A DNA stretch of 64,000 nucleotides from Rhizaria sp. SCN 62-66 (lineage: Eukaryota). The stretch's first letter is position 1, and each line of letters begins with the position of its first letter. Below, in pieces: positions 5,098-64,000 of the stretch. Below the pieces are notes generated by a model. That model saw only the letters and a program-made list of their open reading frames with translations, was not told the origin of the DNA and searched no databases. The translations under genes were made by a program, and so were the position numbers. Location: assembly GCA_001724265.1 (NCBI GenBank), contig MEDY01000128.1:1-64000 (forward strand), in the 5' to 3' direction.

Positions 5098-8000
5098 TTA
5101 ATTGGCGGGAAACTCGCAGAACTTCACCGAGGAGTAAGTGCTGCAGTTGGACGTCTCGCATGTCTTCAAGCTGTTATGCCTCTCAAAGCACCGCAACACA
5201 GTGGTGTCAAAAGGAACGGTACCGTTGTCGCGCGCCGCGGCCACGTAGCCTGGCACACACGACATTACGCGACCGACTGGCACAGCACCACGCAGCAGAC
5301 TCGCCTTGCATGACTTGAAGACGATGAACACAGGCGTATCACACGAGCCCTTGTTGTTCGACGGCTCAGAGGGAACAACGGAGCGTGGGTACATCAGCAC
5401 CGTACCGACAGGGTGCGTCGCCCATGCGGCAGGCGCGGAGTACTCGCCATAGACAATATCGGTGGCAGGTAGCGTCAAAGACGACGTGGCGCACGCAGTC
5501 TCGGGCTCGGGATGGAACAGCGTTACAAAGGGCAGCGACGCGGCAGTCTCCCCGTGAGGCACAAAGCAGTTGTGCAACAACGATCCGAGAGTGTTGCCAA
5601 CAGCAGCGGCACGGAAGTGTGCGGCATTGGCTGGAAACTTTACATCATTGAGCCGCACCACCAAGTGATAGTGGTCAATGCACCCTACCGCTGCGTTGTG
5701 AAACATTGCGTGCATGACAACGTTTGCCTTGGTATTTTTGTCTAACGTCTTTGCAATTGCAGCAAAATGCGCGGTTATAAACTCACGCGCTTTGGCTTGC
5801 AGCTCGCTTAAAGCCGGTAAAGTTGGTGCGCCGTTCACACGCTTAGGGGCCGGAAGCTGCACGTACGTGCTACACTGTTCACTCCACGCAACCCGCCGCG
5901 GGTAGCCGCTCTCTTCCAGACTGCACGCAATGTGTGCGTCAAACGCAGCGTCCCACTGCGCATCCGCCGTCGCATGTGCGGACGGATCCGGATTGCGCGT
6001 CACTAAACCCAGCCTTGTGCCAGTCGTTGCTGCGCAATTGAGAGCTTCAAGGTCACTCTTTGTCTGCTCAAGCGCTCTCTGGTCTTCCTCTCGCTTGAGT
6101 GCCGTCTGCCTCTCCTCCTCTCGCTTGAGTGCCGTCTGCCTCTTCTCCTCTCGCTTGAGTGCCGTCTGCCTCTCCTCCTCTTGTTTGAGTGCCGTCTGCC
6201 TCTCCTCCTCTCGCTTGAGTGCCGTCTGCCTCTCCTCCTCTTGTTTGAGTGCCGTCTGCCTCTCCTCCTCTCGCTTAAGTGCCGCCTGCCACTCTTCCTC
6301 TAGCTTGAGTGCCGTCTGCCTCTCTTCCTCTTGCTTGAGTGCTGCCTTCTTCTCTTCTTCTTGTTGCTTTAAGCACACCTCGAGCTCATGCTGGCGCTGC
6401 GCGCTTGCAGAAACCTGTGCTGCCGTAATCATCTGCTGATCAAGCGCCAGACGCTCAAGTTTTGCAGTCTCCCATGCGCTCTCATGTCGCTTGTCTGCGG
6501 ACACAGATGCGACATGTTGTGACAGCCTCAGATTCCGCTCTTGCTCGCAATTGCGCAACGCTAAAGCTGTCTTTGCTGAAGCCTCGTGCAGCTTGATAGT
6601 CCATTCGGCATTAAGATCACGCAGTTTGTCAGCATTTTGCTTCTCCCAATCGCGCTCGCGATGACGCATTGTAGCGGCAGATGCAGCTTCAGCCTGTAGT
6701 AGCTTTGCAGACCACTGCTACTCAAGAATGCGGTTACGCTCAAGCAGACGCTCGCTCTCAACCTGTGCAGCAATAGCATCAACTTTAGCGCGCGAGAGCG
6801 TTGTTGTCCACTGCATTTCAAGAGTGTTCTCACGGTCACCCTGTGCAACAGCAGCTGCAATGGCTGCGGCATCAAACTCTTCTTGTAGCTTTGCCCGCTT
6901 GGTCTCAAACTCGAGCTAAGCTGCAACGACTGCATCCTCAGCAATGCGAAGCTTCTCTGCCATAGCGGCCAGCTTAGCTGCCCCAGAATCTGTGCACGCC
7001 TGCGGAACATTTGCCCCCTCTGCATCCATTGCATCAGCGTACATTTGCAACGCGCGCGACTGCTGCATTACGTCCGGAAAAGACACAGCGCACCGCACGC
7101 GCACTGCAACGCCGGCGTTGCCAAGAGTTCCATTGTCGCGAGCGTTGCTTGCTTCATAGTCAACAATAATTTTGTTCAGCGCTGCTGGTAAACTCAACAC
7201 AACGGAGGCTTTACGCGGGTTTTCAACCTTAGTATTAACGGGTGTCTTTCCATTTGTGTTATGCTTGGGATCTTGAGTAAGCCACACCTTGCATTCAGCG
7301 CTGGCCTGATTGTTGTCTGCCGAATACAAAGTAAAATTCGCATTCACGTGGCCAAACGTGCTGGCTACTGTCGCGAACTGTTCCGATACATCACATAGAA
7401 CAAGTATGGGAGACGTCGCTGGTGAAACTAAGCCATTATTGTTGAGCAAAGAGCGAGAAACGCATGAGGAGAGCATGTTATCTGTGATGGGAGCGCTACG
7501 ACCATAATAACTTGTGTCATTGTCATCATCCTCGGTCGGCACCAAATCATCAACAACGCGCGCACGGGCACCACAAGTGTTGTAGAGTTCCCCAAGTGCT
7601 TTTTGCATTGGCTCTACTGTTGCTTCGCAGATAATCCCGCAGGAACACGCGTTACAGTGGCCAAATCCATTGATTTGGCTGCTACGCTGAAAAGACGCAC
7701 TACTTTTATGCGATTTAGTTGCACAGCTGCAGTCGCGACGCGCGCTAAAACTAAAACGCACACCACATAGCTTGGCAACGCCTAGCTCCACTGCCTTCAT
7801 ACCGCGCACAAGCGCAGCGAGCGGTACGATAGCCTCACAGACAACCTCACGAGGAGTCAAGGTTAAAGCGGCGTCAGCAAGCGCGGCCTCGAAGGCGTCG
7901 CGTGCAATTTGAAACTGTGTGAGGTCAGGATTGACATGCGCCGACCAGTCACGACTTGCAGTGACTAGGTTGGCCAGCGCCGAGATGTCGGGCACAACAA

Positions 8001-9451
8001 CGGAGTCAGCAATGTTTTTGAGGTCGCAGCGCGCACGTGAGAGCTTCTTATCCTCAGCATCATATGACTGTTGTGTGTAAAGCTTAAGCTGTGACATCAC
8101 TGCTTTGAAGGGCGCGATGGCCTGAGCAGTGTAACTCCTGGTGTGATCAAGCAGAATTGCGTGCTTGCTCTCAATCTCATCCTTGAACTTCATCATAACA
8201 TTTTTTTGCTCCTGTGTTGCAGATGTAATAAACAGTTTAGTGGAATTAGATTTTAGCATTAAGCTTTAAGATTAAAAAAATCACTTTGTTTGTCGTATTT
8301 TTAATTCATTCATGTGCGTTACAACAGTAACATGTCTTCAAATCCATCTTGAATACGCACCTTGACTTTGCGCCCAAACTCGACGAGCTGTTGCGGTAGC
8401 TTTTCCGCGCGGATCCTCAGGTCTGACTGCACCATGCTAATGAGACGGATAGTGTGACCCGCATGCGCACGATTTGCAGCGTTGCATGGCACGCAAACGG
8501 CAGTATTGCAGCTGTCGCACCAGTTGATGATCTCGATCGGTGGTGTGTGCGAACGGCAGTACTGTGCACAATGTTTTTGTAAGCATCAACGCAAAAACAC
8601 AGGAATAATATTGTGTGTTGTTTGTTGCGTAAAATCCCGTGAAGAAAATGTGAAAGCGACGATATTTTAAACAACAATAGTTCAAACAACAAAAAGACAC
8701 ATGTGAGATATTCATACAGGACGGACTAAAGCAACACATATCGTACTTTGCGTGGTACTAGAGTTATCATTTGTCAATACATTGTGATAGTGAAGCTCTC
8801 AAATAACAACGCCTCATTTTGTTATCGTTGTTTGTCACTTGTTACTCATACAAACGTACGAGTACTACAATGTAGTACGCTCACTTATATAAGATGGTGC
8901 TGACTGTTGACAATTCTGCAAAGAATAGTTGTTATGGCAGCAAACACGTACGTTGGGGTTGTTTAAATCCACGGAAGCTGCAAAGGCGCCTGCAGCTGCT
9001 GTTGTTGTTGCGGGCTCGCTCGGGTAGTAGCTGCTCCCGTGACGGCTGGCTGTGGAGACAGTGTCTTCAAGGAACTCACTCGCCTCATCCTAGCCATTGT
9101 GAAAAAGATACATTACAAAACAGCATAGTGATAGGCAATTAAGAATGTCTTATAATCATATCCATACAGTCTACAGTGTTCCTGCACTTTTATATTCTCA
9201 TAATCCGAGTCTTTTTTTCAAAGTCCAAGGAAAGCACTCATCTGTTTGGCTTACCTGCGAGCAGCTCGCACAATTTCTGCGAGGCCTGATATTTGCAGGC
9301 GTGATCATCGTTTTTCCGCAAACCTCACACCGTGAAAAGGTCTATGACATTATCTGTTCGACGACTTAGGTCTTTGCGATAAGATCACGTGTCGGAGAGA
9401 GAGAAGGTAGCAAAGAACAGAAACTGTGAGAGGTGAATCGTATCTTACCAT
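5098..9451 (-). CDS. B-box zinc finger + long coiled-coil protein (TRIM-like architecture, ~1,180 aa) with two in-frame TAG codons
   Basis: Proposed exons are 9451-9449 (ATG only), 9341-9255 (CEVC...CASC), 9089-8952, 8561-8361 and 8211-5098. Exon 8561-8361 encodes CRSH-x9-CDSC-x4-CVPC-x6-HAGH, a B-box type 2. All introns are phase 0 with GTAAG/GTACG/GTGCG...AG. The last exon is continuous except for TAG at 6918-6916 and 6720-6718, and ends in TAA. The 5' exons are less certain than the 3' ones. Confidence 0.72.
6081..6350 (-). repeat. Coding minisatellite, 9 x 30 nt, encoding (EEERQTALK[R/Q])n
   Basis: The unit TCTCCTCCTCTCGCTTGAGTGCCGTCTGCC (+ strand) repeats at 30-nt spacing from 6081 to 6350 with few substitutions. 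Confidence 0.95.
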
Positions 9452-24562: not shown

Positions 24563-24594
<32 letters not shown>

Positions 24595-37500: not shown

Positions 37501-39898
37501 AAGTGGCGCCTCGTTTCATTACAACACACAAGTTAGTAGCATTACCCTCGCTGCGAGCAGCAGACAAGTGGTTAGTTTAAGCACAGACACAAAAGACAAA
37601 ATGAATAGTTACAAGGATAACCTTCCACCTTTGTATTCTCTAATTACGAGTAACGCACTAAAAGGCACAACAAACAACGACAAAAGCAAAACCAAAAAAG
37701 AGATCGTGCAAAATCAGATCAATAATCGTGAGTATGATTACATCGTCATTGCAACACCTTTATCTTCGGCACTTACAGTGATTAAGACAACAGAGGTGGA
37801 TAGTAAACAAACGCAGGATGATGATCGTGGTGTTATTCACATTGATCCTCGTATTTTACGGAGTGACCGTGCTCTCGAGTATTACCATACTTCGTTAGTT
37901 CACATGCGTGCTCACAGCCGCAGCAACCCTCACAATCAAGTTGACACTCAAACTCCTAACTATAGCGATGGAAGGAGATTTGACTACAACATTGAGCGCT
38001 CGTTGTATTACGGCTACACAAAACCATCAGCTCGTGCTGATGACGGTGGTGAGCCAATGACCGTGTTTCATGACAGAGATCGCACGAGCTCTCTAATTGC
38101 AATGCTATCTGCTGCAATGTTTGGCGGTTCACATAAAACGTATGATGAGGAAAAGTCTAAGTACTTGACGTCTCCGTTGAAGTACCAACAGTCTCGAGCA
38201 TCACGCTTTGACAATAGCAAAAGCGTCTCTCAGTCACTTCGCAACAACCGCAATGGTGGCGTCCAACTTCCCGAGCTAGGGAGTGCACGTTCATTAACCC
38301 CTGTGTCCCCACCATCGATGCGCATTCACTCGCACAATATCTTCTACTTGCCTGCTGTGACCGCAACAGCAAGTCAAAGCGCGCTGCCTGAAGTGGCTGA
38401 GACGGTGTTGTTGGCGGCAAAGATAGCCGCTGTTGCTATTGCAGAGGATGCAGCGACAATGCGTGTTGTAACAACGCCAGCAGCAACACCGGGGAAGGAT
38501 GGGAATACGACTCAGATACAGAGCAGGACAACTACTATCAAGCGCCACCCGAAAGACTTGTTCAAGTTGATGGACGCTTACAAACAGAGTAAATCCAGGA
38601 GGAGTAGGACTACCAATAGTGCGCGTAATGTTGGGGAGCTTGACACTACAAGTACCCGTGCATCATCGCCTCTAGATAATGACCCAAATATAAGTGCTAC
38701 ATACGCAAATGGCACTAATACAAGTCCACGTCGCTCTCGCTTGCATACCATCAATGCTAGTGAAGTAAATTTGGATCTCCGTAGTAACAACACCAAAACT
38801 GATTTTGATGATGTCTCTCCGTTGCGTGAGGCAGCTTACATTTTTAGACAAGCTGCCTTTCCGACCTCTCCGGCGACACTTACACAGCCACAGTATCAGC
38901 GCGAACGGATCATCAGCACGGACTCCGACTCAGTTTCAGTCACACACCCTAGCTTTAGTTCTAAGAGCAAGAGCAAGAGCAGACACAATGGTCACAAGTT
39001 CTTCAGACGTAACAATAACACTCGTGCCATTCCAAAGGCTACTGCGAACAGGATTGCAAGTACTGCAGCCTTTCAGTACGCAAGTTCTGGTGGCGCAAGC
39101 GCTGGCGCGCGCGTGTCTTCAATCGTGTCTGTTTGTGGAGATAAAGATGGCACATCGCAACACAGAGTCACACGTCAGGATACTAGTGGCAATGATGGTC
39201 CATTGTCTGACAGTCCACACAGTGACAGTCAACGCAGCGACAATAAGCGACATGCCAACTGCTGTCTAGCTAGTAGCAACGCCAAGATCAATGCAAGTAT
39301 CTCGAAATCTCGGGCGCTCACGACCGCGAGTTCAAGTACTCGTGACAATAGCAGCTTGAATGTTGCAAAAAACACTCTTAACAATATGATTAGGAAAAGA
39401 GCGCACAGTAGCAAACCTAAGAAGCAGCACTTATGCGGCCCCGTCGGGGATTTCTGGTCTTTTCGACTTGGTTGGTCACTCGAAGTTGATCATACGCTTG
39501 CGCAACTTGAAAGAGATTAGCAACAGACAAGTCCTGACGCTGCTTCTTTGGCGACGACTGTAACTGCCTCTGTTTTAGTTTCGAGCCTTGACAGCGCCAG
39601 CAGCAGCGAGCCTGTGACTAAATCAAAGAGTCAAAACAAGACCAAGTCGGGAGCCAAGGCTACTCAGCATGAGACCGTGTCAGAACATCTGCAGCACCTG
39701 CTGCTGCGTCCGACCCCGCGCCACCGCCCGCGGCGCAACGCGCTGCACGAGTTCGACCTCACCGACACCAACGCCTCTATGCGGAGGCGCGAGAGAGCCG
39801 GGCTGGTAAACGTGGGCGTGACGGGGGATGGTAACGCAAGAGGATATGCGGATTTTGAGAATGGATTTGATAGTAGTATTCAATGCCGGTGCAATTGA
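34589..39898 (+). CDS. Secreted FAD-dependent oxidoreductase, prenylcysteine oxidase/lyase-like, heavily expanded by insertions (~1,770 aa if TAG 39518-39520 is read through)
   Basis: It has the signal peptide MYVMRLFCTVVVLLIVAFSARA and the Rossmann motif RVAIIGAGLAG. Further blocks are DVFERS, LLVKESGASFHYNTQVSSI, YDYIVIATPL and IFYLPAV...AETVLLAAKIAAVAI, the last resembling the PCYOX C-terminal motif. ORF 39548-39898 is in the same frame, directly after a single TAG. Confidence 0.7.
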
Positions 39899-44806: not shown

Positions 44807-45136
44807 CTTTGAGATACCAAAGTTGAGTTTGGATGTCAAAAAGGCCTGCTCTCGAGCCTCTCTGGTCACCAACCGAGCCCAGCTCCAAACTGACCGTGAG
44901 CGAAACTAAGCCGCGGCAGTTCCTAAAAAGTCATTCATGAGGATTTCTTAAAATCGCGTTAGCACCATCTGATAAGCATAAATAAATATAATTTTTTTTG
45001 TTTAGCAAATCGGCGTGTGTATTAAGTATCATGTTTCACTATTACACCACTGTGGCCCGACCATGACCCACATATCTCTTTAAGAAAGGCTGAGACTCGT
45101 TCGACCGAGTACTTGAACAAGAGACACTTGTTGCTT

Positions 45137-46749: not shown

Positions 46750-47210
46750 GCTATCGAGAGAGCGTGGCGAAAGTGGAGATAAGTGCAGGGGACGATGGGA
46801 AAGGCAGAGAGAAGATGATACAGTGAGCCGTTGTTGTGGGGCGAAAAGAGAAGGCTAATATCAGGCCTTCACGCGTTCATGCGCGGCTGTAAAATAGTGA
46901 TCATTGCAAAACCAGCCGGTTTTACAGATAAAAGATAGAATTATTCCATTTAACAGTCAAATAAAGGCCCATGAATGAGTAACGCCTCAGCCCCAGAGCA
47001 AGACGGTCGAGCGATCGACGAGCGAGAGTGACCGTGAGCAGCGGCTTGCCAGGCTCGACCGACCGAGCTCTCGCTCGACCGCGCCTTGCTGCGGCCTGCG
47101 GGGCGGCGGTGCAAGCGGGAGCGGTTCGAGGAGTCTCGAGACGACCGTCAACGAGAACAAAAATGTGGAAAACGCAAGAAGACGTTGTTATCGGCACTAT
47201 CTAGTAACCA
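46750..47210. promoter_or_regulatory. Probable bidirectional promoter region between divergent CFAP161 and EIF3D
   Basis: The 461-nt spacer between two divergent start codons has a GC-rich, TCGA-rich core (about 47000-47150) with short inverted repeats. Confidence 0.45.
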
Positions 47211-49312
47211 ATGACGAGTGAGCTTGCTTCTTTTGAGCTGCCGAAGATCTTCGACAACCCTGCTGGCTGGGGTCCCGGTCAGTCCGTGGGCTCTTTCGAC
47301 GACCCTCTGTTCCAGCCCTACAACAAGTCAGAGCGTCTTACCAAGATCTCCGACTGGACCATCATCAACCGTTCTAAGGGTACGTCTCTTTCCCACCCTA
47401 TTCCAACCACGCTTTCCCTACGTAATATCCTCTCTCCTCTTCTTGAGTCCATTGCCCACTCTCTGGGTCTTTGCCGACCTTTCTCGTACCATCTCTCTTC
47501 GATCTCTCGTTTTAACGTTCTTATTACTGTTCGCTAACATATATCCTTACGTTTGATCACGTTTCGCACTCTTTGCACCTCAATTCACCCTCGTACATAG
47601 GCCGCGCTGGCGCCACGGGCTCCGGCTTCGCCTTCAAGGCCGAGGAGGACGACTCCAACTTCTCCTTCGCCAGCAAGCCCACCTTCAAGACCCAGCTCAA
47701 GCGCCTCACCACGCGCGGCGGCGCCGGCGGCAGCGCGCCCCGCTCTTCCGCCATGGGCGCCGCTGGCGCTCGCGGCGGCGCCCAGCGCGGCCCCGCCGGC
47801 CCCGCGTCCGCTGCAGCCGGCGCCCGCGCGGGCAACAGCGCGCGCGCCAACCGCATCCAGGCCAACAACGGCCGCGCGCAGGCCGGCCGCGGCGGCCGCG
47901 GCGCGCAGTCGGGCCGCGGCGGCCGCGGCGGCTACGCGCGCAACAACTACTTCCGCGAAGAGGCGTCGCGCGACCCGTCCGTGCCGATCGACGGTGCGTG
48001 GGAGGAGCTCGATGAGTTCAGCTTCGACGAGCTGCAGAAGGCCACCGTGTCCACGGTCGAGGCCGAGACGATCCTGTCGGCGGGCAAGCTGTACCGCTAC
48101 ACTGACACCACGGACGCCATCCAGCCCAAGTTCGCCAAGGGCCTGCCTAAGGCGCCCACGGAGCCGTACGTGGCCTCGGCGTCGTCCGACCCCTACATCC
48201 GCGAGCTCGCTGAGAAGCAGACGGCGGACGTGTACATCACCGAGGCGGCCATGTCGCTGCTCATGTGCGCGCACAAGACCGCGCAGGCGTGGGACCTGCT
48301 GATCCGCTGCACCGACGACGCCGTCTTCATCGACTACCGCCCCGACTCGCGCGTGCATCTGCTGCCTATCAACGAGACGGCCGGCGACCACCTCAACGTG
48401 CCCGACGCCGACGGCATCAACTCGCCCGATAACCTCGCCAGCGAGTCGGCCGCCATCGCGCGCTCCTTCGCGCACTTCGCCGTGTCCGTCCCCGCCGCCG
48501 CGCCCTCGGCCGCGGGCGGCGCGGGGCTGTCGTTCGCCGCGCTCGCCGCGCGCGGGCCCTCTGCGTCGCAGCTGTCGACCGAGTTTAAGGAGCAGGACCG
48601 CCCCGCGCCGCACGCGGCCGACCTGCCCGCCGAGAAGCAGCCCGCGTCGACGGTGTTCCGCTACCGCCGCTTCACGGTGAACCCCGACGCGGACGCGGGC
48701 GAGGACGCGACGCCGATCACCGTGCTCGTGCGTACCACGCTGCACGCCTACAAGCCCGCCAAGGACGCCAAGGAGGCGACGCCCGAGGACGACGCCGACG
48801 CCGCGGCCGCCGCGGCCGCCGCCGCCGCCGAGGACGAGATCGTGGTCAAGACGCTCAACGAGGTCGACTCGCGCATCACGAGCGGCATGGACTGGCGCGA
48901 CGGACTCGAGTCCCGCGCTGGCGCTGTGCTGGCTGGCGAGAACAAGAACAACGCCGCCCGCGTGGCGCGCCTTGCCGCCGAGGCGCTCATGTCGGGCGCC
49001 AGCCAGCTCAAGCTGGGCTTCCTGTCGCGTCTCACCCCCAAGGACGCGGCGCGTCACAGCGTGCTCAAGGTCGAGACGCATGACCCGTCCAAGTTCGCGT
49101 CGACGATGCGCATGACTGCGCGCTCCTTCTGGGCGGGCGCGATGCCGCTGCTGCAGGCCGCCGTCGGGCTCGACAACGGCAAGTACATCATGATGCGCGA
49201 CCCTAACCGCACCATCGTGCGCCTGTACAAGGTGCTCGACACGACGTTCGACGACGAGACGTGCGTGCTTAAGATCGACTCCGAGGCCCCCATGGCCATG
49301 AAGAGCAAGTAA
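47211..49312 (+). CDS. EIF3D: Eukaryotic translation initiation factor 3 subunit D; 2 exons
   Basis: Exon 47211-47379 contains DNPAGWGP...FQPYNKSERLTKISDWT. Intron 47380-47600 runs GTACGT...TAG. Exon 47601-49312 contains SSDPYIREL, DWRDGLESRAGAVLAGENKNN, KLGFLSR and GKYIMMRDPNRTIVRLY. Confidence 0.95.
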
Positions 49313-49763: not shown

Positions 49764-51701
49764 TCATGTCATGACAGCGTTGTTGTTGCCGCTCCCCGCG
49801 TCACTCATCGGGACACCCCCGCTCGCGCCCGCATCCGCCCCCGCGCCGGCAGCAGCAGCGGCGGCGGCACCGGCGGCGGCGCCGGCCTGGTTGACGCACA
49901 CGTTGTAATGCGCGGCTGCTGGCCTGCCGCAGCAGCCGCAGCAGCCGCAGCGGGGCGCGCCCGCCTCGGCGACCATGGGAGGCACACGCACGGTGTCGAC
50001 GTGGCGCACGCCGCCGCGCACGTTGCGCCGGAAGCGGTCGCGCCCGGTCGCGCTGGACTGGAAGTGCGCGGCCAGCGCCGCCGCGAGCGCCAGACGCCGC
50101 CCGGGCCCCGCGGCGGGCGTCTCCAGCAGCAGGCGCAGCAGCGCGAGCGCAGTGGCCAGCGGCATGCCCGCGACGTTGACCAGATACGTCTTGAGCGACT
50201 TAACGGCGTACGAGGAGCGCACGACGACGGCGTTGCCGAAGTCGGAGCGCAGCAGCGTGGGCGCCGCGCTCTGCCCGTCGAGCAGCGGCAGGCTCGCAGC
50301 CGTCGCGAGGGCACGAGGCCCGCTGCCCGCAACGCCTGAGGCCGCGGTGCCGACTGTGGTCGAGGCGCCGGTGCGCGCGGCCATGGCCAGCTCGGCCTCG
50401 CTGACGGGCGGGAAGTCGATGCTCGCGCCCAGCTCGAGCGCGTCCTTGCGGTGCTCGTAATAGTACTTGATGTCGCCAAGCATCTGGGCCGAGACGGCCG
50501 CGCGCTGCTGCGGCGTCTCACGGTCCTCCGGCTTGGTTTTGAGCTGCTGGTAGCGCCACACGGGGTCGTGCTCGCGGTCATCGAGGCACAAGTCCCGCAG
50601 CGCGCCCATGCGCTCCGCGGCCGCCTCGTCGTCCTCGACCTCGGTGTCCGAGTCGCAGCAGCCCACGTCGGGCCCGTACATGGGCGGGATCAGCGGGATC
50701 GCGGGCGTCAGCGGCGCGTCGAAAGGCAGCAGCCGCGCGCGGTCGCCTGCCGCGAGCTTAGGGATGATGCACGGCCCGAAGACCTGCGGCCCCGCCAGCG
50801 CGTCGAGCTCGTTCGTCTCGCACATGTTGCCCCACTTGGAGCGCAGGTCCATCACCGAGAACCCACCCAGCCAGGGCGCGAACCGCGCGTCGCGCTTGAC
50901 GCGGCTGAAAAGCGTGTTGCCGCATTGCGCCACGGTCAGCGCGGCCGTCAGCCCGCGGTCCGCCATGTCCGTCCCGATCACCGTCACGGCGTCCGTCAGC
51001 ACGGCCTCATGGTGCGGCGTCCAGTCGCTGCCCTTGAGCGCGGCCGCGCGCTTCCCGCGCAGCGACGTGAGGAACTTGCCGTGCGCCGTCTCGTCCGCGG
51101 TGAGCCGCACAGAGGACGAGCCGAGGCGGCTGTCGCCGATGACGGCCCCCGCAAGCACCGGGGCCGCCGTCGACAGGCCGCCTACAAGGGGCGCAGCGGC
51201 GGCCGCCCCAGCAGGGGTCGCGGGCGCAGCGGCCGCGGGGGCGGCGGTGGGAGCGCTGGGGGCGGCGGCGGCAGCGGCGGGACTAGAGCTGGAGTTGAGG
51301 AGGCGGGCGAGTGCCTCCGCCTCCTGCTCGGCCTCGGCACTAGACGCGGCAGCAGCTGTGGGCTCGGGCTTCGCGGCGGCGGACTCGAGCTTGACCAGGG
51401 CAGCGTCGGCCGTCGCGGTGACCGCGTCCGCGTCGTCGGTCATTGCTGCAGCAGCGGCGCTATCATTCGCAGCAGCGGAGCCGGGCGCCTAAAACTTGAC
51501 AGTGACGTCGCCGTCGGCGGCGGCAGCGGGCTGAGAGGCAAGGGCGGCCTTGCGGAGGGCAAGGCGCTCCTTGAGGGAGAGCATAGCCGACGGCGCGGCA
51601 GCAGTCGCCGCGTCGGCAGTGGCAGCGGAGGTGTTGGTGTCGTCGTCGTTCATGGTGTTGTCGGCAACGGGGGAATCCGCCTTCTCGGTAGGGGGCTGCA
51701 T
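49764..51701 (-). CDS. Uncharacterised ~645-aa protein with a telobox-type Myb/SANT-like domain and one in-frame TAG (51491-51489)
   Basis: ATG 51701 opens a GC-rich coding-like frame, MQPPTEK...DVTVKF*APGSAAANDS...MTDDADAV, that is continuous with ORF 49764-51443. WTPHHEAVL...VKRDARFAPWLGGFSVMDLRSKWGNM (about 51023-50823) resembles the TRF/TRB Myb motif DLKDKWRNM. Confidence 0.7.
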
Positions 51702-52307
51702 GCGAGGAGAAAAGCACCAAGAAAAAAGTGCGATGCAAGACGATGTGTTGTTGTGTTGTGGGTTGGCTCTGAGAGAGACAATTAGAGAGGTACGCGAACG
51801 GAGAGAAATTGATAGGAAAAGTGGTGAGTCTAGGGATGTCTGGGTAGAGCCACACAGATGAGTTGAACACATGTTGTTTCAGGCACACGCGAAAAATTAG
51901 ATGGAAAACCAGGAAAAACATAAATTTGTAAGATCAACGACGGAATCAGGCCACACGTGATGGATGTAATCGAGAAGTCGAAGGCTGGGCGCGAAGACGA
52001 ACTCGATCGCGAGCGACCGGAGATTTTTTGCGAACTCGACTGACCAACGTCTCACGACTGGGAGTTGATCTTTGAGCCGATCTACCTCTGCATTATATCT
52101 GTAAACTAGAATTAAACCTCCGCAGTCTAGCACTTAATTGCGGTTTTGTATAGTTATATTTAATTGTTTTTTCAAAATCTGCCGTCTTACCTGCCCCCGC
52201 TCCCCTCGAATCTTTCCATTCGACTCCCCAACTTGAAATGCCTCGTGCCACCTCCACGCCGCTCCTTCGTCCCCCGTTCCTTCCACAACGCAGCCCCGCC
52301 TGCCACC

Positions 52308-55300
52308 ATGCGTCTCACTGACGTCATTGGCTGCTCCCCGCCGACCCGCGAGGGCTTAGCTTATTATACCCCGCCCACAGCCACCACTTCCTCGTCCTCG
52401 TCTTCAGAGGCATCTTCAAACTACTCAAGCAACTCCCCGAGTGCCAGCTTCCCCTCACCCGCAGCCTCGAGCGCCGGCCCCCACGGCTCCTACGCCGCTG
52501 AGCTTGCCGCGTTTGCCGCCGCCCCGCTGCACTCGTTCCCGTGCAGCGCGCCCCGCCACGCCGGCGCGACCACGGTCACGCTGCCGGCCCTGCTGTGCAG
52601 GCCGCTCGTGGCCGTGCCCGCGGGTGCCTCCGTGCTGTTGCTGTGCGCGACCACGCTCGACACGCTCGCCGTGCTGCCGGGCCGCAGCGGGCACCAGATT
52701 GTCTCGCTCGCCTTCTCGCCCCTTACGCCGCTCCCCCCGCCTCAAACTATGGCCGACACTGCTGCGGCTGCAACGGCGACAAAGCCTGAGGCAGCGGATA
52801 ACGCTGCTCCCCAGCAGCAGACGCACGACGTGCTGCTGTATGCGGGCGAGTCTGGCGTTGACGCCGGCGTTCTCGTCTTCAGCCTGTCCCTGCTGGGCCC
52901 CGCCGTGGCGCTCTACGCGATGCGCCCTCCCTCGCCACAGTCCTTCGTCGCGGCGGCGGCGGCCGCGGCGGCCAGAGTCGCGCTCTCCCAGCGCGCCAGC
53001 TCCAGCAACAGCAGCACTACGACCGCCTCTGCAACTCCTGCGGGAGCGACCCTGGCCGGCGCAGTCGCCGCCGCCGTGACCGCCGTGGCACACCTAGTGG
53101 GCGACGCCGAGGCCGAGTCCGCGGCCGAGTCCGTGGCCGTGGCGGTGCTGCAGCCCGCGACCGTGGGCACCGTCGCGCCCTCGCCCTGCGGCCGCTGGTT
53201 GCTTGCCGCCAGCAACACCGGCACGGCGCTGTGGGCCCTCGCCACCCCCACCACCACAAGCACCGCTAACGCGGGCCTGAGCACTGTGATGGAGAGCTCG
53301 AGCTCGGGCGCAAGTGTGAGCGCGAATGACGTCGATGCCGGTGCAGTTGCTGTTGCTGGGGATATGGTGACTGTGAGCAGCGCTGTTGCGTCGATGATTC
53401 ACTACAATAACAACATCGCCCTCTCGCAGCCACATCATCAGCAGAGGATCAACTCAGAACATTGCGAGAGTGAGCGAGCGTGCAAGCGCGAGCGCAAGCG
53501 GCGGCAGCGGCAGCGCCGGCGGCAGCAGCGGCAGCGGCTGCGGCAGCTTGTCTGGGACTGGGCCTCGGCCTCAGTCCTTACTCTGACCCGCCACCCCACG
53601 CTGCCGGACGCCGACACCACGCTCGCGCTCGCCGCGGCGGCCGCGCCGGCGGCTGCGGAGGCTGTCGCGGCATATCTTTCGAGCCCTGGTGATTACGCCG
53701 TGAGAAGTGTCAATACCGGTGCGAACACTGACGCCGACGGCAGTGCGCCGTGTTTGCTGCTAGCCTCGGCGGCGGCGGGGGTCGTGGCCGTGGCGGCCCG
53801 CCCGCCGCCGCCGCTGGCGCTGGCATGGTCTCAGTGCGGCAGCTATTACGCTCACAGCCACTTGACTGGCGGGGCGAGCGTGGTATCGGTTGCCGAGGTC
53901 TCGCCGCGGGCGCTGCTGCTGGCATCCGCTGTACACGGTGACACTGAGGGCAAGAGCACAGCAGCTTGTCAGAGCGACGATGATGTGTTAGTGGCGGTTC
54001 CCGTTGCTGTCGAGCTACTTACAAGTCTAAGTACCCTCTGGCAGAAGGCGAACCCATACGCCCCTGGCTGCTCACAGTCACCCTTAGAGCTTCAGAAGAC
54101 CCTTACAGAGGCGATCACGCGTGCCGCCGCACTTACATCTGCTGACAACGACAATAAGAACAGGAGCAAGAGTAAGGGTGCTAAACGCCAAGATGGTGAC
54201 GACGATGAGAATGAGAGCGGCACTGTGCTGTCCGCGTCGCTGCTGCTGACTCTGTCTCACCCGAACCCCGCAAACCCGATGCCTCTCCTGCATCCTGGCA
54301 CGAACAGGGCCAAAGCTCAGAGCGACAGTGGCAGTGCTAGAGCCAGTGCGAGTGCGTGTGCGAGGACGTATGACGAGGTGTCGTTGTCGCTACTGCTGTC
54401 TCTCTTGCCAGCCCTACTTCTGCCCCTGACTACTTCATACAGCAATGACCGCAATATCAGTGGTTGCGGCAGTGGTGGGCTGGCTGTGACCGTGAGCACC
54501 CCAGTCAGGCTTGGCTTGCACAAGAACATCTTGATCCCCTCTATCGCTTGGTTGCCGACTGCAAACGCACACTCTCCCAGCAACACGGCCACTGACGTGA
54601 ACAATACCAATGCGAGTGCGTGTGCGAGTGGTAAAGAGCTATGGGCGGGCCCCGAGTGCTACTTTCTCACCGCCACGGGCGTCATTCTGCTGCTGCGGCC
54701 GAAGCTTTTCCCCCCGCTGCACACCATCATCGCCGCAAGCTCGAGCCCAAGCAGCATCACGCGCTCAGCCACCGCCCCAGCCACGGCGACCGACGCTGAC
54801 ACGGCGAGGGCGGCTGCGGCAGCGTTCGCCCGCGTGTTTGCAGCAGACCAGGCTGACGTGCTGTTGCCAACCATGGCGACAGGCTTTGCCGCTGCGTTCA
54901 ATTCGACGGTACGTCATTGTAGTCATTCTCTCAGAAATACTAGGATTATTTGACTATAATTCATTGAAACGTGCGTTTTATAATTTTGTTTGCATTATTG
55001 TTTCATCTTACTCACATCATACCTTGTATCTCCATTGCATTTTAAATCATATGCGTAGATTCTTCCCACTCTCGGTCTGCCTGCAATCACAGCCTCCACT
55101 GCTGCCGGCCTCAACTCCACCACAAACGGGCTTGCGTCAGCGACTACCACCAGCGGCAGCGTCACTTTGCGGCTGACTTGGGAGGTCGAGAAGTGGGTCA
55201 GTGCCAAGATCGACCACGGTCTCTACTTACACGCCTCGCAGCTCCCTTACACCTCATACCCGCCCCCCTTAGTGCAGTCCCCAGCCCCCGCCGGCGGCCC

Positions 55301-58300
55301 GCCCCAGTCAAACGCGAGCGCGAGTGCAGGCACGGGGCCCGCGAGTGCGAGCCCTGCTGGCGCGGCGACCCCTCTGTGTCTACTCACGGTCACGGGCCGC
55401 GGCGGCCGCGTGCGCCTCTTCCATACACACACGCTGCGCCACGTCACGGCCATCACCGCGCTCCCGCCCACGGGCGCCGCCGCGGGCACCGCCGCCGCGG
55501 CCGCGGACCTGGCCGGCGCGGCGGCCGCGATCGGCGCCATCGCCACGCGCACCGCGGGCGCCGACGTGCGCTACTACGACGCCGTCGACAACACGGACCC
55601 GAGGTTCCGCCGGCTGCTGCGCAAGCACGCGCAGGAGCAGCAGGAGCTCCTGAACGGCGCGAGCGGCGGCGGCGGCGCTGCTGCTGGCGACGGTGCGGAC
55701 TCGCGCGGCGCCATTGGGGGCGTGGCCCCCGTCCGCGGCGGGATCGACTACCGCAGCAGCGGCCGCTATGTGCGCCGCATGGAGCGCTACGAGGCCAAGA
55801 TGCGCGCCGCCGGGTTCCCGCACGGCCCGCCGACCCGGGCCAGCTTCGTCACGCTCACGGTCCCTGCGCCAAAGCTGCCCGTGTGCGTCACACTGCGCCT
55901 GTCGGCGGACGGCAGGAGCCTGGCGATGCACTTCGCGGACCGGTCGCTGCTCACGGTTGCTTTGACGTTTCCGGACGCGGCCTACGCAAACGGCGCGAGT
56001 TCCAGCGCGACCGCAAGCGCGAATGCGAGCGGCGCGAGTCTGGGTCACCTGAGTAGTCGCGTCGGCAGCGGCAGCACGCCACGGGACGCCAAGGGCGCGG
56101 CCACCGCCAAGCCCTTTGTCCCCAGCGTCGCCTTCACCGGGTACCGGCCTGCGGTGCGCGGATCCGTGTCGGCGCTCAGGGTATCGACCGTGTACCCGCA
56201 CAACCCGGCCGCGGAGTCGATGGCGGGGTTCAACTACACCGCACGGCTGCAGCAGCGCGCGGCCGCGGCGGACCACCCGCGAGCCCACGCGTACGCGGCC
56301 GAGCTGGCGGCCAAGCTCGCCGCGCAGGGCGAGCCGCTGGCGGCGCAGTGCGCGCGCGAGCAGCGCGGCACGCTGGCGGTGACCGTGGTCGGTACCGAGG
56401 GTGTGGTGCGCGTGTTCGCGCTCAGGCCCAGTGGGGCGGGGCACGCCAGCGACTGTGAGCGCAACTACTTCCCGCGCAGTAAGGAGGAGCGGGACAGCGG
56501 GACGTACGACCCGTTTCCGCTCACTAACAAGAGCAAAGCTCGCACTGGCGGTGCTGGCGGCGCGAAGCCTGAGAGCGACTGTGAGCGCAAGGTGAGCGAC
56601 TGTGAGCAACTCTCACCATCACTGTTGCAGTCGCAGTCTGAGGCGCGGTTCCGCCGCAGTGTTGCGCTGGGGGACCGTGAGCAGGCCGAGCTGCGGGACC
56701 AGCAGTGGCAGCAGGTCTCGTGGGGGCCCATTGACCCGGTGCCTGTGGACCGCGTGCACGCGCTCTTCGCGGTCCGCACCGGCATGCTCAACCAGTACTC
56801 GACGCCAGGTACTTAGACGCGAACACCATTTTCACACTGACACTTCTCATTCTCGATGGCTTTTTGATTTATGATGATATTTTTGTTCTGGATTATCAAT
56901 GTCTTTATCTAACATTATCCCTGTGTTTTTGTTCTTTTATTTGATTTGTTATCGTTTTAGGTCCCGCTGCCGTCAAGGGCACTCAGGTTATCACGGCTGC
57001 CTCTGCCTCTGCATACGCCGCTGCCACGACCGATGGCAGCAAAGCAGGTGTTTCTAGTTTTCCCGTCCACGGCGCTCAACATTCAGCCGTTGCCGCTATC
57101 GACGGAAGCACTAATGTGCAGCAACTGCAGTCTGCGCCGAAGACGACGTGTCTCGTCGGCGCTGCGACGCCCGCAGTCTCGTTCTGGCAAAACAGCACTA
57201 ACGCCGACGACAACGACAGTATTAGCGACATCAGTGACACCGATAGCGGCACCGATTATGACGACGAAGACGAAGCTGACAACGCTGGCGGCGTCAGTCT
57301 TAAGCGCGAGCGCAAGTTGCTGCAGCAGCAACACAACGACAGGCAAGAGGGCAAGAGCAACAGCAATATGAGCTTTAACTGGGACGACGAAGCGACGTAC
57401 ACTGACAATAACGATGAGTCAAAGAGCAACATCTCTCACAAGAATCTCACCAACAGCGCCAGCAACGCTAGTTTTGTTGGCAATGTTTTGAACTCGATGA
57501 CCGCGAGCCTCGTCATGCGCGGCGTTGTCACCGGCGGCGCCCGCAGTGCCGTTGACTCCTCTACCGTGACTGCAGCGAAGCCGGCCGCTGATCACAGCGA
57601 CATTGTGACGGCGATCGCCGACGGCGACATCGCCAGCGTCCACGGCGGCGTGGCGGCCGACGCGGCGTACAACAGCTGGGACGCGCTGCAGCAAGAGGGC
57701 GCGCTGGCATGGGCGCTGTGGGGGACCGACGTCGACGCCGTGAGCACCATCACCACGACGGTCACCACGCGCACCAACTGCACCGCCATCTCGACGTCGT
57801 CGTCCTCACACGCCACCAGCAGCAACAACACCGGTGACAGCACCCAGAAGAGCGACTCTAGCGGTGGCGGCGCGAGCGGTGCGGGCAGCCAGGTGACCGT
57901 GAGCACGCCGACGGCGACGACGACCGTGAGCGAGCGCGACGGGCTCCACGTGCGCACCAAGGTCGTCACAGGCAACGCCGCGATCGAGAACGACTGGACC
58001 ACCGCGAACCTGCCCCCCATCACGGACGCGGCCGCTCCGACTCCCAACCCGGCGAGTCACACTGGTGCCGGCCGTGGCGGTGCTGCTGCGGCGGCCACGC
58101 CCCAGCCTGGGTTTGCGCTGCCGCCGACAGCGCTCACCGCATTAGTGCCTCCCAAAGCTAAGTCGCAAAGCACCTGCAAGAACAGCAGCGCGAGTGCGAA
58201 TGCGAAGGGCAGTGATGGCGTCGGCGGGTACGGTGCGGCCGCGCACTGCGTCGCCATGATCCAGGCCCTCAGCGACGGCGGGGTCGCGGACCCTTACTCG

Positions 58301-61300
58301 GCGCCCACTTACTCCGGCACGGCGCCGCACGCGAAGGGCCGCGGCGCGCGCGCGCTGGCTCCGTTAACCACGCTGCCTGCGGGCGCGAGCGTGCCGCTCG
58401 ACGGCTCCCGCCATAACAGCATCGCGTTTGCCCACGGCAGCGACTCTAACGCCGGCACCAGCGACACCGCGTCTGGGTTCAACAGCGGCGCGCAGAGCGT
58501 GGGCGTGACCGTGGGCAGCACGCTGGCCGGCGTCGCGGTGGGCGACACCAAGGGCGACGTGCTGGTCATGGCGGCCGTTGCGCAGAGCCTGTTGCCGGCG
58601 GCCGTGTCGGCGCCCGCGGCCGAGCACGCGGTGACCACGACCGCTGGCGCCAGGGCCGCGGCCGAGGCCGAGGCGCGCACCGCGATTGCCGTCGCTCTCG
58701 CGTATGCCCGCGACTTACTCAACAAGAACAAGAACACCAGTGCAGGCAGTACCCGTGACACTCACAGTCTCAACATGGCCGTGCTGGAGCTGCTCGAGCG
58801 CGAACCGATGCTGCTGACGACCGGAGTAACTGTGAGCGCCAGCGCCCGCACCGGTGTGCTCACGGTCACCTCGCCCCACTCCGGCGGCTCCACTATGACT
58901 GTGAGCCACCTGTTCTCCGGGGTAACCGTGAGCACCGCGCACGGTGCCACCAAGGCGGCCCCCATCTGCCCGTACTACAGCTATTATCGGCCGACGCTGG
59001 CTCCGACGGCGCCCGCCGCGGTACGGTTGGCGTGCCACGCGCTCGCGCACACGCTTCTGTTCCCGGTCAAGACGCTGGGCGCGCACGAGGGCGCGGTGAC
59101 CGCGCTGTCGTTCTTGCCGCCGCCCCCGGCCCCGCTGCCCACGGTCACAACCACAACGACGACGACGACTACAACGACGACGACTACAACGACGACGACG
59201 ACGACGACGACGTCTGGGACGCCAGCCGGCAACCACAGCGTTAGCGGCGTCAGCGGCGTCAACGAGGGCGGGCTCGTGCCACTGCCTTTCAGCCTCGGCC
59301 GCCGCCCCTGCCCCGGGCACTTGCTGACAGCCTCGCAGGACTCGCTGGTGCACGTCATCGACACGGGCGACCTGTACGGCCCTCCGCTGACCACGCTGCA
59401 GCCCGTCGGGCCCCTCGCCACCGTCACCGCGCTGGCCCCGCTCCTACCGCCCTCGAGCGCGCCGGCCGCGCTACTCAACGCCGGCCCCCGCGTCGTGGCC
59501 ACGGGGCTGGACGGCAGCGTCACTCTGTGCCACCTGCCGCCCTTCACTGCGCTGCCGCCGCCCAACAGCGGAATGGCCTACGGTGGCGCGCCCTCTGGGG
59601 CGTTCTGCCCCCCGTTCCCGCCCGCCCTGTCGCTCCACACCGCCTCCGCCTCTGCTTCTGGCACTGGCTCTGGCGCCGGCGCCGGCGCGGGTCCGGGTGT
59701 TAGTGACCGCGTGTTCGCAGTGGCGGCACATCCTCTGGGCCGACTCGCGGTCACCGCGGGCGGCGTCGCGGCGGCCGACACGTGGCAGCTGCCCACGGCC
59801 ACGGCCTCGGCCGCCGCGGCGAGCACCGGCATGCCCGCCGCGGTGGTCGGCGGCAAACCCGGCCCGCGCCTGTGGCTGCCGCTGGTCTCGGTCGTTGCCC
59901 GGCACGTCCGACGCGAGAACAGGCGCGAGGCGGCTAAGGGGCTGGCGAATAAGGGGTGCTTAGAGACGTCGAAGGGCGGGGTTAGGAAGAGCGTTACCAG
60001 TGGCCCCGGGACTGCTGCTGGTGACGCTGAGGTCATCACTCTTGACAGCACCGATGACAGCGACTCTGGCGCTGAGTTCGAGTCTGACGATGACTCTGCT
60101 TCCGACACTGATCGTGACAGTGACGACGACGACGGCGACGATGACGACGACGACGACGATGACGACGATGATGAGGTCGAGTGGCGCCACGACTACCACA
60201 CTGCCATTATCGCGCTCAAGCTTGCGCGGGACAACGACCAGCACAATCATCAAGTCAAGCTCGACAAACTCAACAAAACTAAGGCGAGCGCGACTGAGAA
60301 GACGGCCAAGAAGACTCGCATCGGTGACGACGATTACGACGAGTTTGCGTTCGACACAAGCACTCCGAGAGTCAACGACGCCGTTGCTGAGGCCGATACG
60401 GGCGGCAGCTTGACCGTGGTCGAGAGCGAGGCCACCAAGGCCGCCGTCGCCGCGCTGGCCGCGGTGGTGGCGCAGCGGCCAGCCCGCGCCCGCCCGCAGC
60501 CGCTGCTCTGCACGCACGCGCCGTCGCCGCTACACCGTTCGCGGCCGCCGCCCAACCTCGCCTCGCTCTCACTCCTCGCCAGCGGCGCGGCAGCAGGTGG
60601 CGGCGCGGTGACGGCCGCGGCCCGCGCCGCCGCCGCTGTGGCCGTGCCGTGCTGCGCGCTCACGGTAGCGCTCGACCCGTCGGGCTCGTGCCTGGCCGCG
60701 GCGCTCAGCGACGGCCGCGTCCGCCTGCTCGACACGACGACGGGCGCGACGCTCAGCGAGGCGCCCGCCGTGCACGGGTCACACGTGTCCGCGCTCGAGT
60801 TTGCGCCCGACTGCGCCGCGCTGCTCGCGGCGGGCGCGGACGGCGTCGTGGCGCAGTGGGCCCTCCCGCGCTGGCTGCGGCTGCGGCTGCGCGCCCGGCT
60901 CGGCCCGCTGCTGCGCGACGTGCGCGCGCAGGACGGCGCCGCGCTCGTCGCGCGCGTCGCGGCCGCCGCCGGGGTCTCCACGGCCGCGCTCACGCCTGCG
61001 CCGCACGCGAACACCAGCGCTCTCACCAGCCAGTCGGGCAGTAAGTGCGCTAGCGCGAAGAACGACGAGGATGATAACGACGATTTGATCACTGTTACGC
61101 CCGCGATGGCTCGCGCTCTCTGTCTTCCTGCTCACAGCAGCAGCGGGAGCAATGCGACGATCACCGCGACCGCGCTGCGGTCTCGCCTGCGCTCTCTGAG
61201 CGTAGCCGCGACCGACGCCGACCTGATAGCGCTGCTGCTGCGGCCGGCCAAGGCGCCGCCGATGCTGTTGGTGCCGCCGCCGCGTGAGCAGCGACTGCCG

Positions 61301-61551
61301 GCGATGTCGCGGTACTACAAGCAGTGCCTCGACGAGCTGATGCAGATGCAGCGGCAGCACCAGCAGCACATGCTTGAGCTAGAGCGGGAGCAGGAGCAGG
61401 AGCAGCAGGGGCTAGAGCTGGAGCACAAACAGTCGCAGCTGGTGCTCGAGCCCGAGACTGAGCCGGACGCTGACGCTGACGCTGACGCTGAGGCAGGTGA
61501 TGACGCCGAGGCTGAAGCTGCTGACGCTGTTGAAATCGACGTCGATATTGG

Positions 61552-61583
<32 letters not shown>

Positions 61584-64000
61584 AAGCGAGCGACGACAGT
61601 CTCGACGGTGCTGACGGCGAAGACAACGATAACGAAGACAAGACCAACACTGGTACCAACGGCGTCGCAGTCGACGATGATGATGTCGATATCGACATCT
61701 CTTTGTCTGACACTGGCAACGCCAGCAAGGACAGTGTCGCCGTCGATAACAGCAAGGCAACTGGCTTCGTTCTTCGTCTCGCTGGTGTCAGCGCTCATGA
61801 CCAGAGTGTAAGTACTCCGAGCAGGAATCTAAGTACCCCCGGCTCTGCCGTGAGCGGCCGCAAACCCTCCAGGTGGGCTGCCAACGCGGCGGGACAAGGC
61901 GGCGTCCCACTGTTTATTCCGCGCATCAACAACGCCGCTCTGTCCAGCACTTTCACGAACAACGACACTGACAACGACAACGATGACAACGGGGTTAGTG
62001 GCAGCACGAGCCTGAAGTCTGACGTTGTCGTTAACGCGAAGAAGGCTGACGATAAGAGTGCGGTTTACAGCGTGAAGTCTGGTAAGACTGCACTGACTGC
62101 TGATGCTGATGCGAAGGACGACGCTGTTGTCAGCGGTGACAACGATCTTGGCTACGGAGACCCGACGCAGCAGTACAACAACAAGTACACCAACAAGTTT
62201 GCGAACATCAAGCTGCACAATAACACCAGCAGCAAGAATAGCACGATCGATAAACACGCCGACGCCGACGCCGCCGATGACGACGATGATGGCGCGAGCT
62301 CGAGCACGAGCGCGTCCTTCCACCTCCGCATCGCTGACGCTGACGACGACGACGATGACGGCGACTACGACAACGACGGCGACGATGACGCCCGCGGTCA
62401 CTTGCGCAGCGGCGGCGTGGCGCGGGTTGGCACGGGCAGGCGCAGAGTCACCAGCGCGTCGCGACTGCAACGGGCCCCCGTCACCACCACGGCGTCCGCC
62501 GCGACCGCAGCCGCAGCCAGTGCGAGTGCGCTGAACAGCAACGCCAGTAGCGTGGACTCCAGTGGCGCCAGTGCCCGCGTCGTCAACAGCGCCGGCTCTG
62601 CTTCGACGACGAGCTCTCGCGACGCCTCCGCCGACGGCGGTGTCAAGCAGAGCGGCCTGACTGCGCGGCGGCAGAAGCCCGTGTTGTTCCGCATGGAGTC
62701 GCCACTGGCCTCGGCCGCGACGCTGCGCCGCGCGGACCTGGGGCTGCAGCAGGCGCTGGCCGAGTACAACACCGCCATCACGACCGGCGCTGCGGCGGGC
62801 GGGAAATCGGGCCATATCCCCGCCGCGCCTACCGCTGCTGTCGGCGCCGCCCAGCCCGACCCTCAGACTCAGCCCGCGCTTGGTAGCGCCGCTGCCGCTA
62901 ACGCCGCTACCGCTAACGCCGCCGCTGCCGTGAGCGCCTTCGGCAGCGTCGTCAGCGTGGGCGGCGCCGCCGTGGTGCTGGCGCGGCAGCCGTCTCGTCG
63001 CAGCGCGCTGCGCCGCATTGGCTCCAGCCGCGCCGCCACGGGGCCGGTCGTCGCGACTGCGGCCGATAGCACGGCTGCGACTCAAGCGTTGGCCGCTGCG
63101 GCCACCGCGACTGAGGCGCCCAGTAGGACTGAGCCAGCGGCTGCGGCTGCGGCCGCGGCTGAGGCGGCTCCTGTGGCTCCTGTGGCTGCGGCTGCAGGCA
63201 TGCCTGGGCTCAAGCGGCAGCCGTCGTTGCGCTCGTCATTCAGTGCTAGTTTCTACAACAATCATAACGGCAGTAGTGCACTGAGCAGTTTCAACGCAAA
63301 CGGAAGCAGCTAGAGCAGCTTTAACACACATAACAACAGCAGCAACACTGCTAGCGATACTACGGATTCTTCTGCTACTACGACGGACTCCGCCACTGCA
63401 GCCGATGTCGCTGCTGTTGACGATGCTGCTGCGGGTGCTACCCCCGCTGTCGCGCTTGATAGCGCTGGCACTGAGTCGAACACTGAGACAAAGGATGCTG
63501 ATACTGCTGCTGCGACCACAGCGGCTGCGGACGAGATCGAGACGGAGACGAAGACTGATGCCCAGACCACTCCCGCGCCCGCGACGGTGACTGCCCCCAC
63601 GCGCACTGTGCTCAACAGCGCGATCGGTGGCGACAGCAGTGACAGCGACAGCGAACCCACCGGCGTCGACCTCAGCAGTCTCATGGCTGCTCGCAACACG
63701 GGAGAGAGGAGCGATGCTGAGGCCGGCAGCAGCGACAGCGTTGGCGCCACAGATAAACCCGAGCCGACGACTGTTGTCATTGACGAAATCAACGACTACA
63801 AGAACGCCAACAACGTTCCCACCGGCGACGACATGGACGTCGAGGACGACTACAGCGAGTTCGAAGAGGAGGCCCTCGAGGGTCCTACGCCGGCCATCAC
63901 TCCCTCGGCCTCCAACGCCAGCGGTCACCCTCATGGTGCGGTGACACCGCGGAAGCAGCAGAAACACGCTGCGACGCCCACCGCCGCGCACGGCCGCGGG
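52308..64000 (+). CDS. WDR62: WDR62/MAPKBP1-like WD40 protein, >3,790 aa, running off the window; 3 exons seen, one in-frame TAG (63311-63313)
   Basis: Exons are 52308-54908, 55059-56808 and 56961->64000. Introns 54909-55058 (GTACGT...TAG, phase 0) and 56809-56960 (GTACTT...TAG, phase 1) keep frame. Ordered motifs matching MAPKBP1/WDR62 are LVAVPAGASV, IVSLAFSP, AGESG, EKWVSAK, HEGAVTALSF, LLTASQDSLVHVID and LDPSGSCLAAALSDGRVRLLD...HVSALEFAPDC...GADGVVAQWALP. Confidence 0.85.

Follow-up and report, generated by a model that had tools for sequence, protein, structure and literature searches.

In-frame TAG codons in four genes of a GC-rich eukaryotic contig suggest a genetic code in which UAG is probably sense

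Introduction

Few lineages are known to have a nuclear genetic code in which UAG, and no other stop codon, has turned into a sense codon; these are Rhizaria sp. exLh, Iotanema, and some phyllopharyngean ciliates. In Rhizaria sp. exLh, according to the sections of Panek et al. (2017; PMC5304391) drawn upon here, UAG encodes leucine, and the terminators are UAA (56) and UGA (15), with UAA preferred; the same sections assign UAG to glutamine in Iotanema spirale (Fornicata), with a transfer RNA (tRNA) of anticodon CUA predicted as the mechanism, and name tRNA(CUA) together with changes in eRF1 as the proposed cause of UAG-only nuclear codes. In phyllopharyngean ciliates, UAG is read as leucine or glutamine, as reported from metagenome-derived eukaryote genomes in the cited part of McGowan et al. 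(2024; PMC11687900). Here we describe a 64-kb stretch of eukaryotic DNA (positions 1 to 64,000 of contig MEDY01000128.1, assembly GCA_001724265.1, deposited as Rhizaria sp. SCN 62-66; hereafter, the window), in which a giant gene for a WD40-repeat protein continues as coding sequence beyond an in-frame TAG at 63311, and three other genes contain a further four TAGs in frame. Judging from the sequence of these genes and of the gene ends around them, it is quite probable that in the source organism UAG is decoded rather than terminating and that UAA and UGA are the only stops.

The comparison with the described systems suggests that the present case shares their defining pattern. As in Rhizaria sp. 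exLh, UAG would be the only stop codon to have turned sense, the in-frame stops are exclusively UAG, and the gene ends, here 8 TAA, 6 TGA, and 0 TAG, leave it out; as in Iotanema spirale, the reassignment would affect UAG alone, with UAA and UGA still in use as stops; and, as in the phyllopharyngean ciliates, it would be accompanied by a preference for UAA. The present case differs, however, from the known UAG-only codes by lineage, by a GC-rich genome, and by the rarity of UAG. Unlike the UAG codons of Rhizaria sp. exLh, which the cited sections place at conserved leucine columns, those described here lie in non-conserved sequence of a GC-rich genome; Iotanema spirale belongs to a different lineage, and its code was derived, in the same source, from a transcriptome with UAG at conserved glutamine positions; and the suppressor tRNA genes that, in the part of the ciliate study cited, were found in two genomes have no counterpart seen in the window. 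There is also a likeness to programmed stop-codon readthrough, where, too, a long, coding-like open extension comes after an in-frame stop. Such readthrough, however, is site-specific and dependent on sequence context or RNA structure, and the same stop codon ends other genes, whereas here we found no shared signal, and TAG ends nothing.

Results

The open reading frame (ORF) 56945..63313 of the WD40-repeat gene comprises 2122 codons and terminates at TAG 63311, and the same frame is open to base 64000. The first-pass annotation, made from the sequence letters, had reported a 229-codon open frame after this TAG, with codon usage like that of the upstream exon and unlike that of 3' untranslated regions (UTRs). 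Both observations hold. The 687 bases after the TAG remain open in only 2 of 5000 dinucleotide-preserving shuffles, and their composition (A at codon position 3, A3, 5.2%; T at position 1, T1, 4.4%; G at position 1, G1, 47%) follows that of the exon before the TAG (A3 4.7%, T1 8.9%, G1 44%), whereas past true gene ends the GC content falls to 0.31-0.49. Four successive segments past the TAG score 0.31 to 0.74 bits per codon under a codon model whose training set was other genes of the window, each time at the top of the six frames, and neither the coding bias nor the Ser/Asn-rich style of the protein is lost in the codons flanking the TAG. The intron phases of the gene join its three exons in one frame. 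The frame past TAG 63311 is genuine coding sequence of the same gene.

These data bear directly on two alternatives. One is that the TAG is a true stop and that the open frame beyond it is part of another gene or exon, in the same frame by chance, which would happen one time in three and for which downstream Met codons could provide starts. The coding signal, however, sets in with the first codon after the TAG, with no UTR, promoter, or AT-rich spacer, whereas every real gene end in the window gives way to AT- or T-rich sequence, and, given the other TAGs described below, the coincidence would have to recur at five sites; this alternative is extremely improbable. The other is an in-frame intron or exitron that removes the TAG from the mRNA. 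The first-pass annotation had held that splicing does not rescue the frame, and the part of this claim that stands is that TAG 63311 is not spliced out; what it missed are 591 frame-preserving GT/GC..AG pairs that span the TAG (spans of 20 to ~500 nucleotides searched), including one candidate of 105 nucleotides (GTCATT...AACAG, GC 0.44). The verified introns, by contrast, are 150-152 nucleotides long, with GC of 0.31-0.32, a GTAC donor, and a T-rich acceptor, whereas the lowest GC among the candidates at the five TAGs is 0.44, 0.40, 0.57, 0.50, and 0.49, and the candidates at TAG 63311 have neither a GTA donor nor a T-rich acceptor. Moreover, there is no joint at TAG 63311 among the joints listed, and the coding bias and the Ser/Asn-rich style persist around it, so that we consider splicing very improbable.

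The identity of the product is a separate matter. The first-pass label, WDR62/MAPKBP1-like, is not supported: PF24782, the model of the second propeller of MABP1/WDR62, matches with 27.9-29 bits against a gathering score of 290, and only at model positions 273-341, its last ~70 positions, while the EML, WDR90, WDR3, WDR75, and generic WD40 models match the same ~70 residues about equally well. No exon matches the propeller models of the WDR62/MAPKBP1 family at the Pfam gathering score; exon 2 has no Pfam match at all, and in exon 1 the one match, to a generic WD40 model, stays below the threshold (E = 0.064, 14.3 bits). WDR62 and MAPKBP1 carry a C-terminal coiled-coil or dimerisation region. 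The 229-residue tail past the TAG has no Pfam match and no homologue in metagenome_contigs or among proteins of 125-401 and 402-2000 amino acids, and TRF detected no tandem repeat at TAG 63311. On the basis of these matches, the product may be called a giant WD40-repeat protein with long low-complexity inserts, its WDR62/MAPKBP1 identity not being established. Among the inserts are 24 threonine codons in a row (59100-59230, forward strand) as well as long Asp and Asn/Asp runs.

The first-pass annotation was right to see a real continuation past the TAG; its one-gene scope was too narrow. In-frame TAGs occur at five sites in four genes: 63311 and 39518 on the forward strand and 51491, 6918, and 6720 on the reverse strand (Table 1). 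TAG 39518 is preceded by 1663 codons of a gene for a secreted FAD/amine-oxidase-like protein, and AT-rich, UTR-like sequence starts only past the TGA at 39896, not past the TAG. The proposed true stop of this gene is near-tandem (TGA GTG TAA, 39896-39904, forward strand). TAG 51491 lies 70 codons after the first ATG of its gene and is followed by 574 further codons before the TGA; the coding signal on its two flanks is 0.80 and 0.51, top of the six frames. The last two TAGs are both in gene A, discussed below. Codon-model scans of the window revealed no comparable in-frame TAA or TGA; under the strict setting, TAG 63311 itself fell just under the threshold on its upstream side. Also flagged by the scans were TAA 29039, a true stop with T-rich DNA of GC 0.37 within ~40 codons; TGA 16829, inside a T-rich stretch scored as non-coding; and TAG 27580, antisense to a 3709-codon gene.

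The contrast between the TAG sites and the gene ends is sharp. In the next 90 codons, GC is 0.53-0.76 after all five TAGs versus 0.31-0.49 after all 14 TAA or TGA ends, and T1 is 0.06-0.14 versus 0.17-0.40. The next in-frame stop comes 65, 125, more than 229, 539, and 574 codons after the TAGs, compared with 1-34 codons, and once 100, after the 14 ends. Coding thus continues past 5 of 5 TAGs and past 0 of 14 TAA/TGA ends (Fisher exact p = 8.6e-5), the 14 ends having been picked by judgement (12 of 20 listed rows, to which the end of gene A and that of the gene stopping at 39896 were added; one of the remaining rows is TAG 51491 itself). For eL14 and eIF3d, true ends are supported by solved homologues, with which these proteins align almost to their last residues. 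Despite a GC content at third codon positions (GC3) of 0.85-0.93 in most genes, TAA is the commonest terminator (8 of 14), and other UAG-reassigned lineages are likewise reported, in the sections cited here, to favour UAA as stop (PMC11687900; PMC5304391).

Gene A provides an argument of a different kind, from protein architecture. The gene has 157 relatives (HMMER, 1.84 billion representatives), which have common N- and C-terminal domains; those looked up (10 clusters, 18 members listed) come only from metagenome records. The N-terminal domain spans ~400 amino acids and the C-terminal one ~290, the latter being cyclophilin-like only by Atlas leads, with TM of about 0.4. An uninterrupted homologue of 808 amino acids (P0004) is colinear with gene A residues 1-399 (E = 5e-66) and 743-1029 (E = 2e-79), and both TAGs fall into the linker between the aligned regions. 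As judged from this alignment, gene A would yield the two-domain protein of its family only if both TAGs are translated, an argument that covers this one gene. Fragmentary public ORFs of the same organism, from other assemblies, point to the same positions: one (P0003) ends one residue before the first TAG, another (P0103) ends just before the second, and a third (P0002) begins at the first Met after the second. The P0002 cluster has four further members, with varying numbers of a 10-residue repeat, and they, too, start at this Met, 5 of 5 in all; the second TAG, therefore, persists while the frames stay otherwise intact. The repeat (EEERQTALKR-like) varies in copy number between assemblies, with fragments of 453-543 amino acids.

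The persistence of these codons is pertinent to the possibility that each TAG arose by recent nonsense mutation, or through faulty assembly, and truncates the protein, ahead of a frame that has yet to decay. One transition is enough to turn CAG, a common codon here (334 occurrences), into TAG; nonsense mutations in GC3-rich genes would give mostly TAG; and the tail of the WD40 gene has no detectable homologues. However, comparison of the Logan contigs of four runs with positions 52000-64000 shows TAG 63311 unchanged, with 0 differences, in X3 record 16 (63056-64000, extending 442 nucleotides past the window), in X4 record 24 (63230-63732, from a different study in 2025, ten years later), and in X6 record 31 (63308-63447). 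Because X1-X3, which contain 99-100% of the stretch, may be source samples, X4 serves as the independent witness. TAG 63311 is no assembly error, since independently assembled contigs from different studies and years carry it, and the CAG that the first-pass annotation had named as a refuting outcome was not seen, the DNA contigs of three runs all reading TAG. Contigs of other runs break at the Thr and Asp/Asn repeats of the WD40 gene. A spate of recent mutations is, moreover, difficult to reconcile with the other genes, where the codon is likewise always TAG and never TAA or TGA, even at GC3 of 0.45-0.56, where TAA and TGA would be equally likely, and with the retention of the second TAG of gene A in 5 of 5 repeat-number variants with otherwise intact frames. 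We therefore regard this explanation as highly unlikely.

Early polyadenylation, the other refuting outcome named for the WD40 gene, was not seen either: a contig of a poly(A) metatranscriptome (X11) maps to 63705-63909, ~400-600 nucleotides past the TAG, with one difference, a synonymous G>A at 63871 (GAG>GAA), although contigs cannot reveal transcript ends and carry-over of DNA into this RNA library is possible.

It could also be proposed that the code is standard and that the TAGs are sites of programmed, site-specific readthrough, which would produce a short protein and less of a long one. Long readthrough extensions occur in some eukaryotes, the RNA downstream of TAG 63311 has a somewhat better fold than its shuffles (z = -2.09; 5 of 200 fold as well), and the CAA next to TAG 39518 on its downstream side partly resembles the CARYYA context of tobamoviruses. 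The five sites, however, share neither a stimulatory context nor a downstream RNA structure: the base after the TAG differs (A, C, G, C, and C), with no common codon context, and the fold z-scores at the TAGs other than 63311 are 0.53, 1.12, -0.35, and 0.33. With five sites in four of about 15 genes, readthrough would, in addition, be unusually frequent; two such events in succession would be required for gene A to join its conserved domains; in the gene at 51701..49767, 89% of the protein comes after the TAG; and a normal TAG stop should end some genes, but ends 0 of 14. Programmed readthrough is, accordingly, unlikely.

Exons of the window have GC of 65-73%, and introns and intergenic DNA 31-49%. 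GC3 is 0.56 in gene A and 0.45 in the oxidase-like gene (34589-39895, forward strand), as opposed to 0.74-0.93 in the other genes, a sharp contrast in codon usage between neighbours on one contig, and these two low-GC3 genes carry three of the five in-frame TAGs. An intronless open frame of 3709 codons (17912-29041, forward strand) ends in TAA and has, as its sole Pfam match, a zf-4CXXC_R1 zinc finger at residues 380-460. Between gene A and a nucleoside deoxyribosyltransferase-like gene, positions 8300-14800 comprise ~6.5 kb of 43% GC without a long open frame under either code.

Table 1. Coordinates of the in-frame TAGs and of the genes that carry them
Feature	Coordinates	Strand	Remarks
In-frame TAG of the giant WD40-repeat gene	63311..63313	+	In the last visible exon
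Coding continuation after this TAG	63314..64000	+	229 codons, open to window end; composition, frame scores, shuffles, poly(A)-RNA contig
Exon 3 of the WD40-repeat gene, up to the TAG	56961..63310	+	WD40 blades at about P0001 residues 1238-1307 (56945-based numbering)
Intron	56809..56960	+	152 nucleotides, GC 0.32, GTACTT...TTTTAG, phase 1
Exon 2	55059..56808	+	
Intron	54909..55058	+	150 nucleotides, GC 0.31, GTACGT...GCGTAG, phase 0
Exon 1 or earlier part of the gene	52164..54908	+	
Second TAG	39518..39520	+	Secreted FAD/amine-oxidase-like gene, 34589-39895
Continuation after the second TAG	39521..39898	+	125 codons, then TGA at 39896; T1 12%, A3 14%; 38/5000 shuffles open
Third TAG	51489..51491	-	Gene 51701..49767, TGA stop 49766-49764
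Fourth TAG	6916..6918	-	Residue 427 of gene A
Fifth TAG	6718..6720	-	Residue 493 of gene A
Gene A	5101..8196	-	1032 codons, TAA stop 5098-5100; N-terminal domain, coiled-coil linker with both TAGs, putatively cyclophilin-like C-terminal domain

Discussion

Three features of the window, namely, in-frame UAGs in several unrelated genes, the lack of UAG terminators among its gene ends, and a protein architecture in gene A that would call for translation through UAG, are those by which UAG-only codes are recognised. With a further four TAGs spread over three other genes, and with TAG at the end of none, the cause is best sought in the organism's general reading of UAG; likewise, since the sites share no context or structure, readthrough specific to each site fits less well than a property of the translation system as a whole. 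Under a code in which UAG is sense, TAG 63311 would be an ordinary, even if rare, codon within the WD40 gene, the frame of which would run on past the end of the window; a tRNA whose anticodon is CUA would read UAG, and eRF1 would no longer recognise it.

Several observations weigh against such a code and have to be set beside this evidence. UAG is very rare, with 5 of 13,972 codons, compared with 384 UAGs in 71 genes of Rhizaria sp. exLh in the cited sections of PMC5304391. The 64-kb window contains 0 tRNA genes (ARAGORN), and the eRF1 gene is absent from it. If 20% of stops were TAG, finding 0 of 14 would have a chance of 0.044, which is only modestly significant for a small, author-selected sample; seven of the listed rows were dropped as antisense or off-frame within longer, better-scoring ORFs, and three of these seven were TAG, and four of the TAA ends are in a G-TAA-G context and are potential splice donors. 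Each of the five TAGs falls in a linker, a tail, or low-complexity sequence of poor conservation, none is at a conserved alignment column, and the gene A linker is not alignable with homologues, so that translation through the TAGs is argued wholly from architecture and composition; no RNA contig was shown to bridge a TAG. The basis is one window of about 14,000 codons. Finally, in a GC3-rich genome most random nonsense mutations give TAG, which, for the TAGs in GC-rich genes, makes the finding that all five codons are TAG weaker than it looks. In the two genes with GC3 of 0.45-0.56, which hold three of the TAGs, the all-TAG pattern counts for more.

As for the amino acid inserted at UAG, the precedents make glutamine or leucine most likely. 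Local repeats give mixed hints: with X for the TAG residue, L or X precedes SSFN at 63311, gene A has both LEMQW and LEXQW, and 39518 reads X-Q-Q. These comparisons would give a slight indication of a hydrophobic residue in two places and of glutamine in one. As a proxy, 14 ends of relatives' ORF fragments inside the conserved C-terminal domain were inspected, and these are scattered, with no dominant next residue.

The source organism is probably not a ciliate. With exon GC of 65-73%, long, intron-poor genes, and introns of ~150 nucleotides, the contig stands apart from the general traits of ciliate genomes. The single protein match of eIF3d is 35% identical, and the best solved-structure match of eL14 is 5xxb_L, marginally ahead of many others. 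The stretch is present in public runs that are bioreactor and wastewater metagenomes, and the organism recurs across such metagenomes spanning ten years. A scan of metagenome_contigs with eIF3d recovered only one contig (L001), 100% identical to 43232-47884 of the window and spanning no TAG, and genome_contigs and viral_contigs yielded 0 further DNA of the organism with the eIF3d or gene-A C-terminal domain alignments as the query. The literature searches brought up no report of a UAG-sense code in a wastewater eukaryote.

Concluding remarks

A more specific scenario, which we consider rather doubtful, is that the contig comes from an undescribed, deep-branching lineage in which the capture of UAG is at an early stage or an unusual one: the use of UAG as a terminator would be gone, the codon would account for ~0.04% of codons, concentrated in genes that evolve fast and in those of lower GC, and its decoding would be ambiguous or to a residue other than glutamine or leucine. 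More immediately, standard gene callers cut the proteins of this organism at the TAGs, as the fragments P0002, P0003, and P0103 illustrate, so that these proteins are mis-annotated in public catalogues. A further, independent UAG-only case, from an uncultured eukaryote whose genome is GC-rich and poor in introns, would supply one more example of how UAG can be uncoupled from UAA. Should the scenario of early capture be true, the organism would offer a rare natural snapshot of a stop codon changing its meaning in a GC-rich, UAA-preferring nuclear genome.

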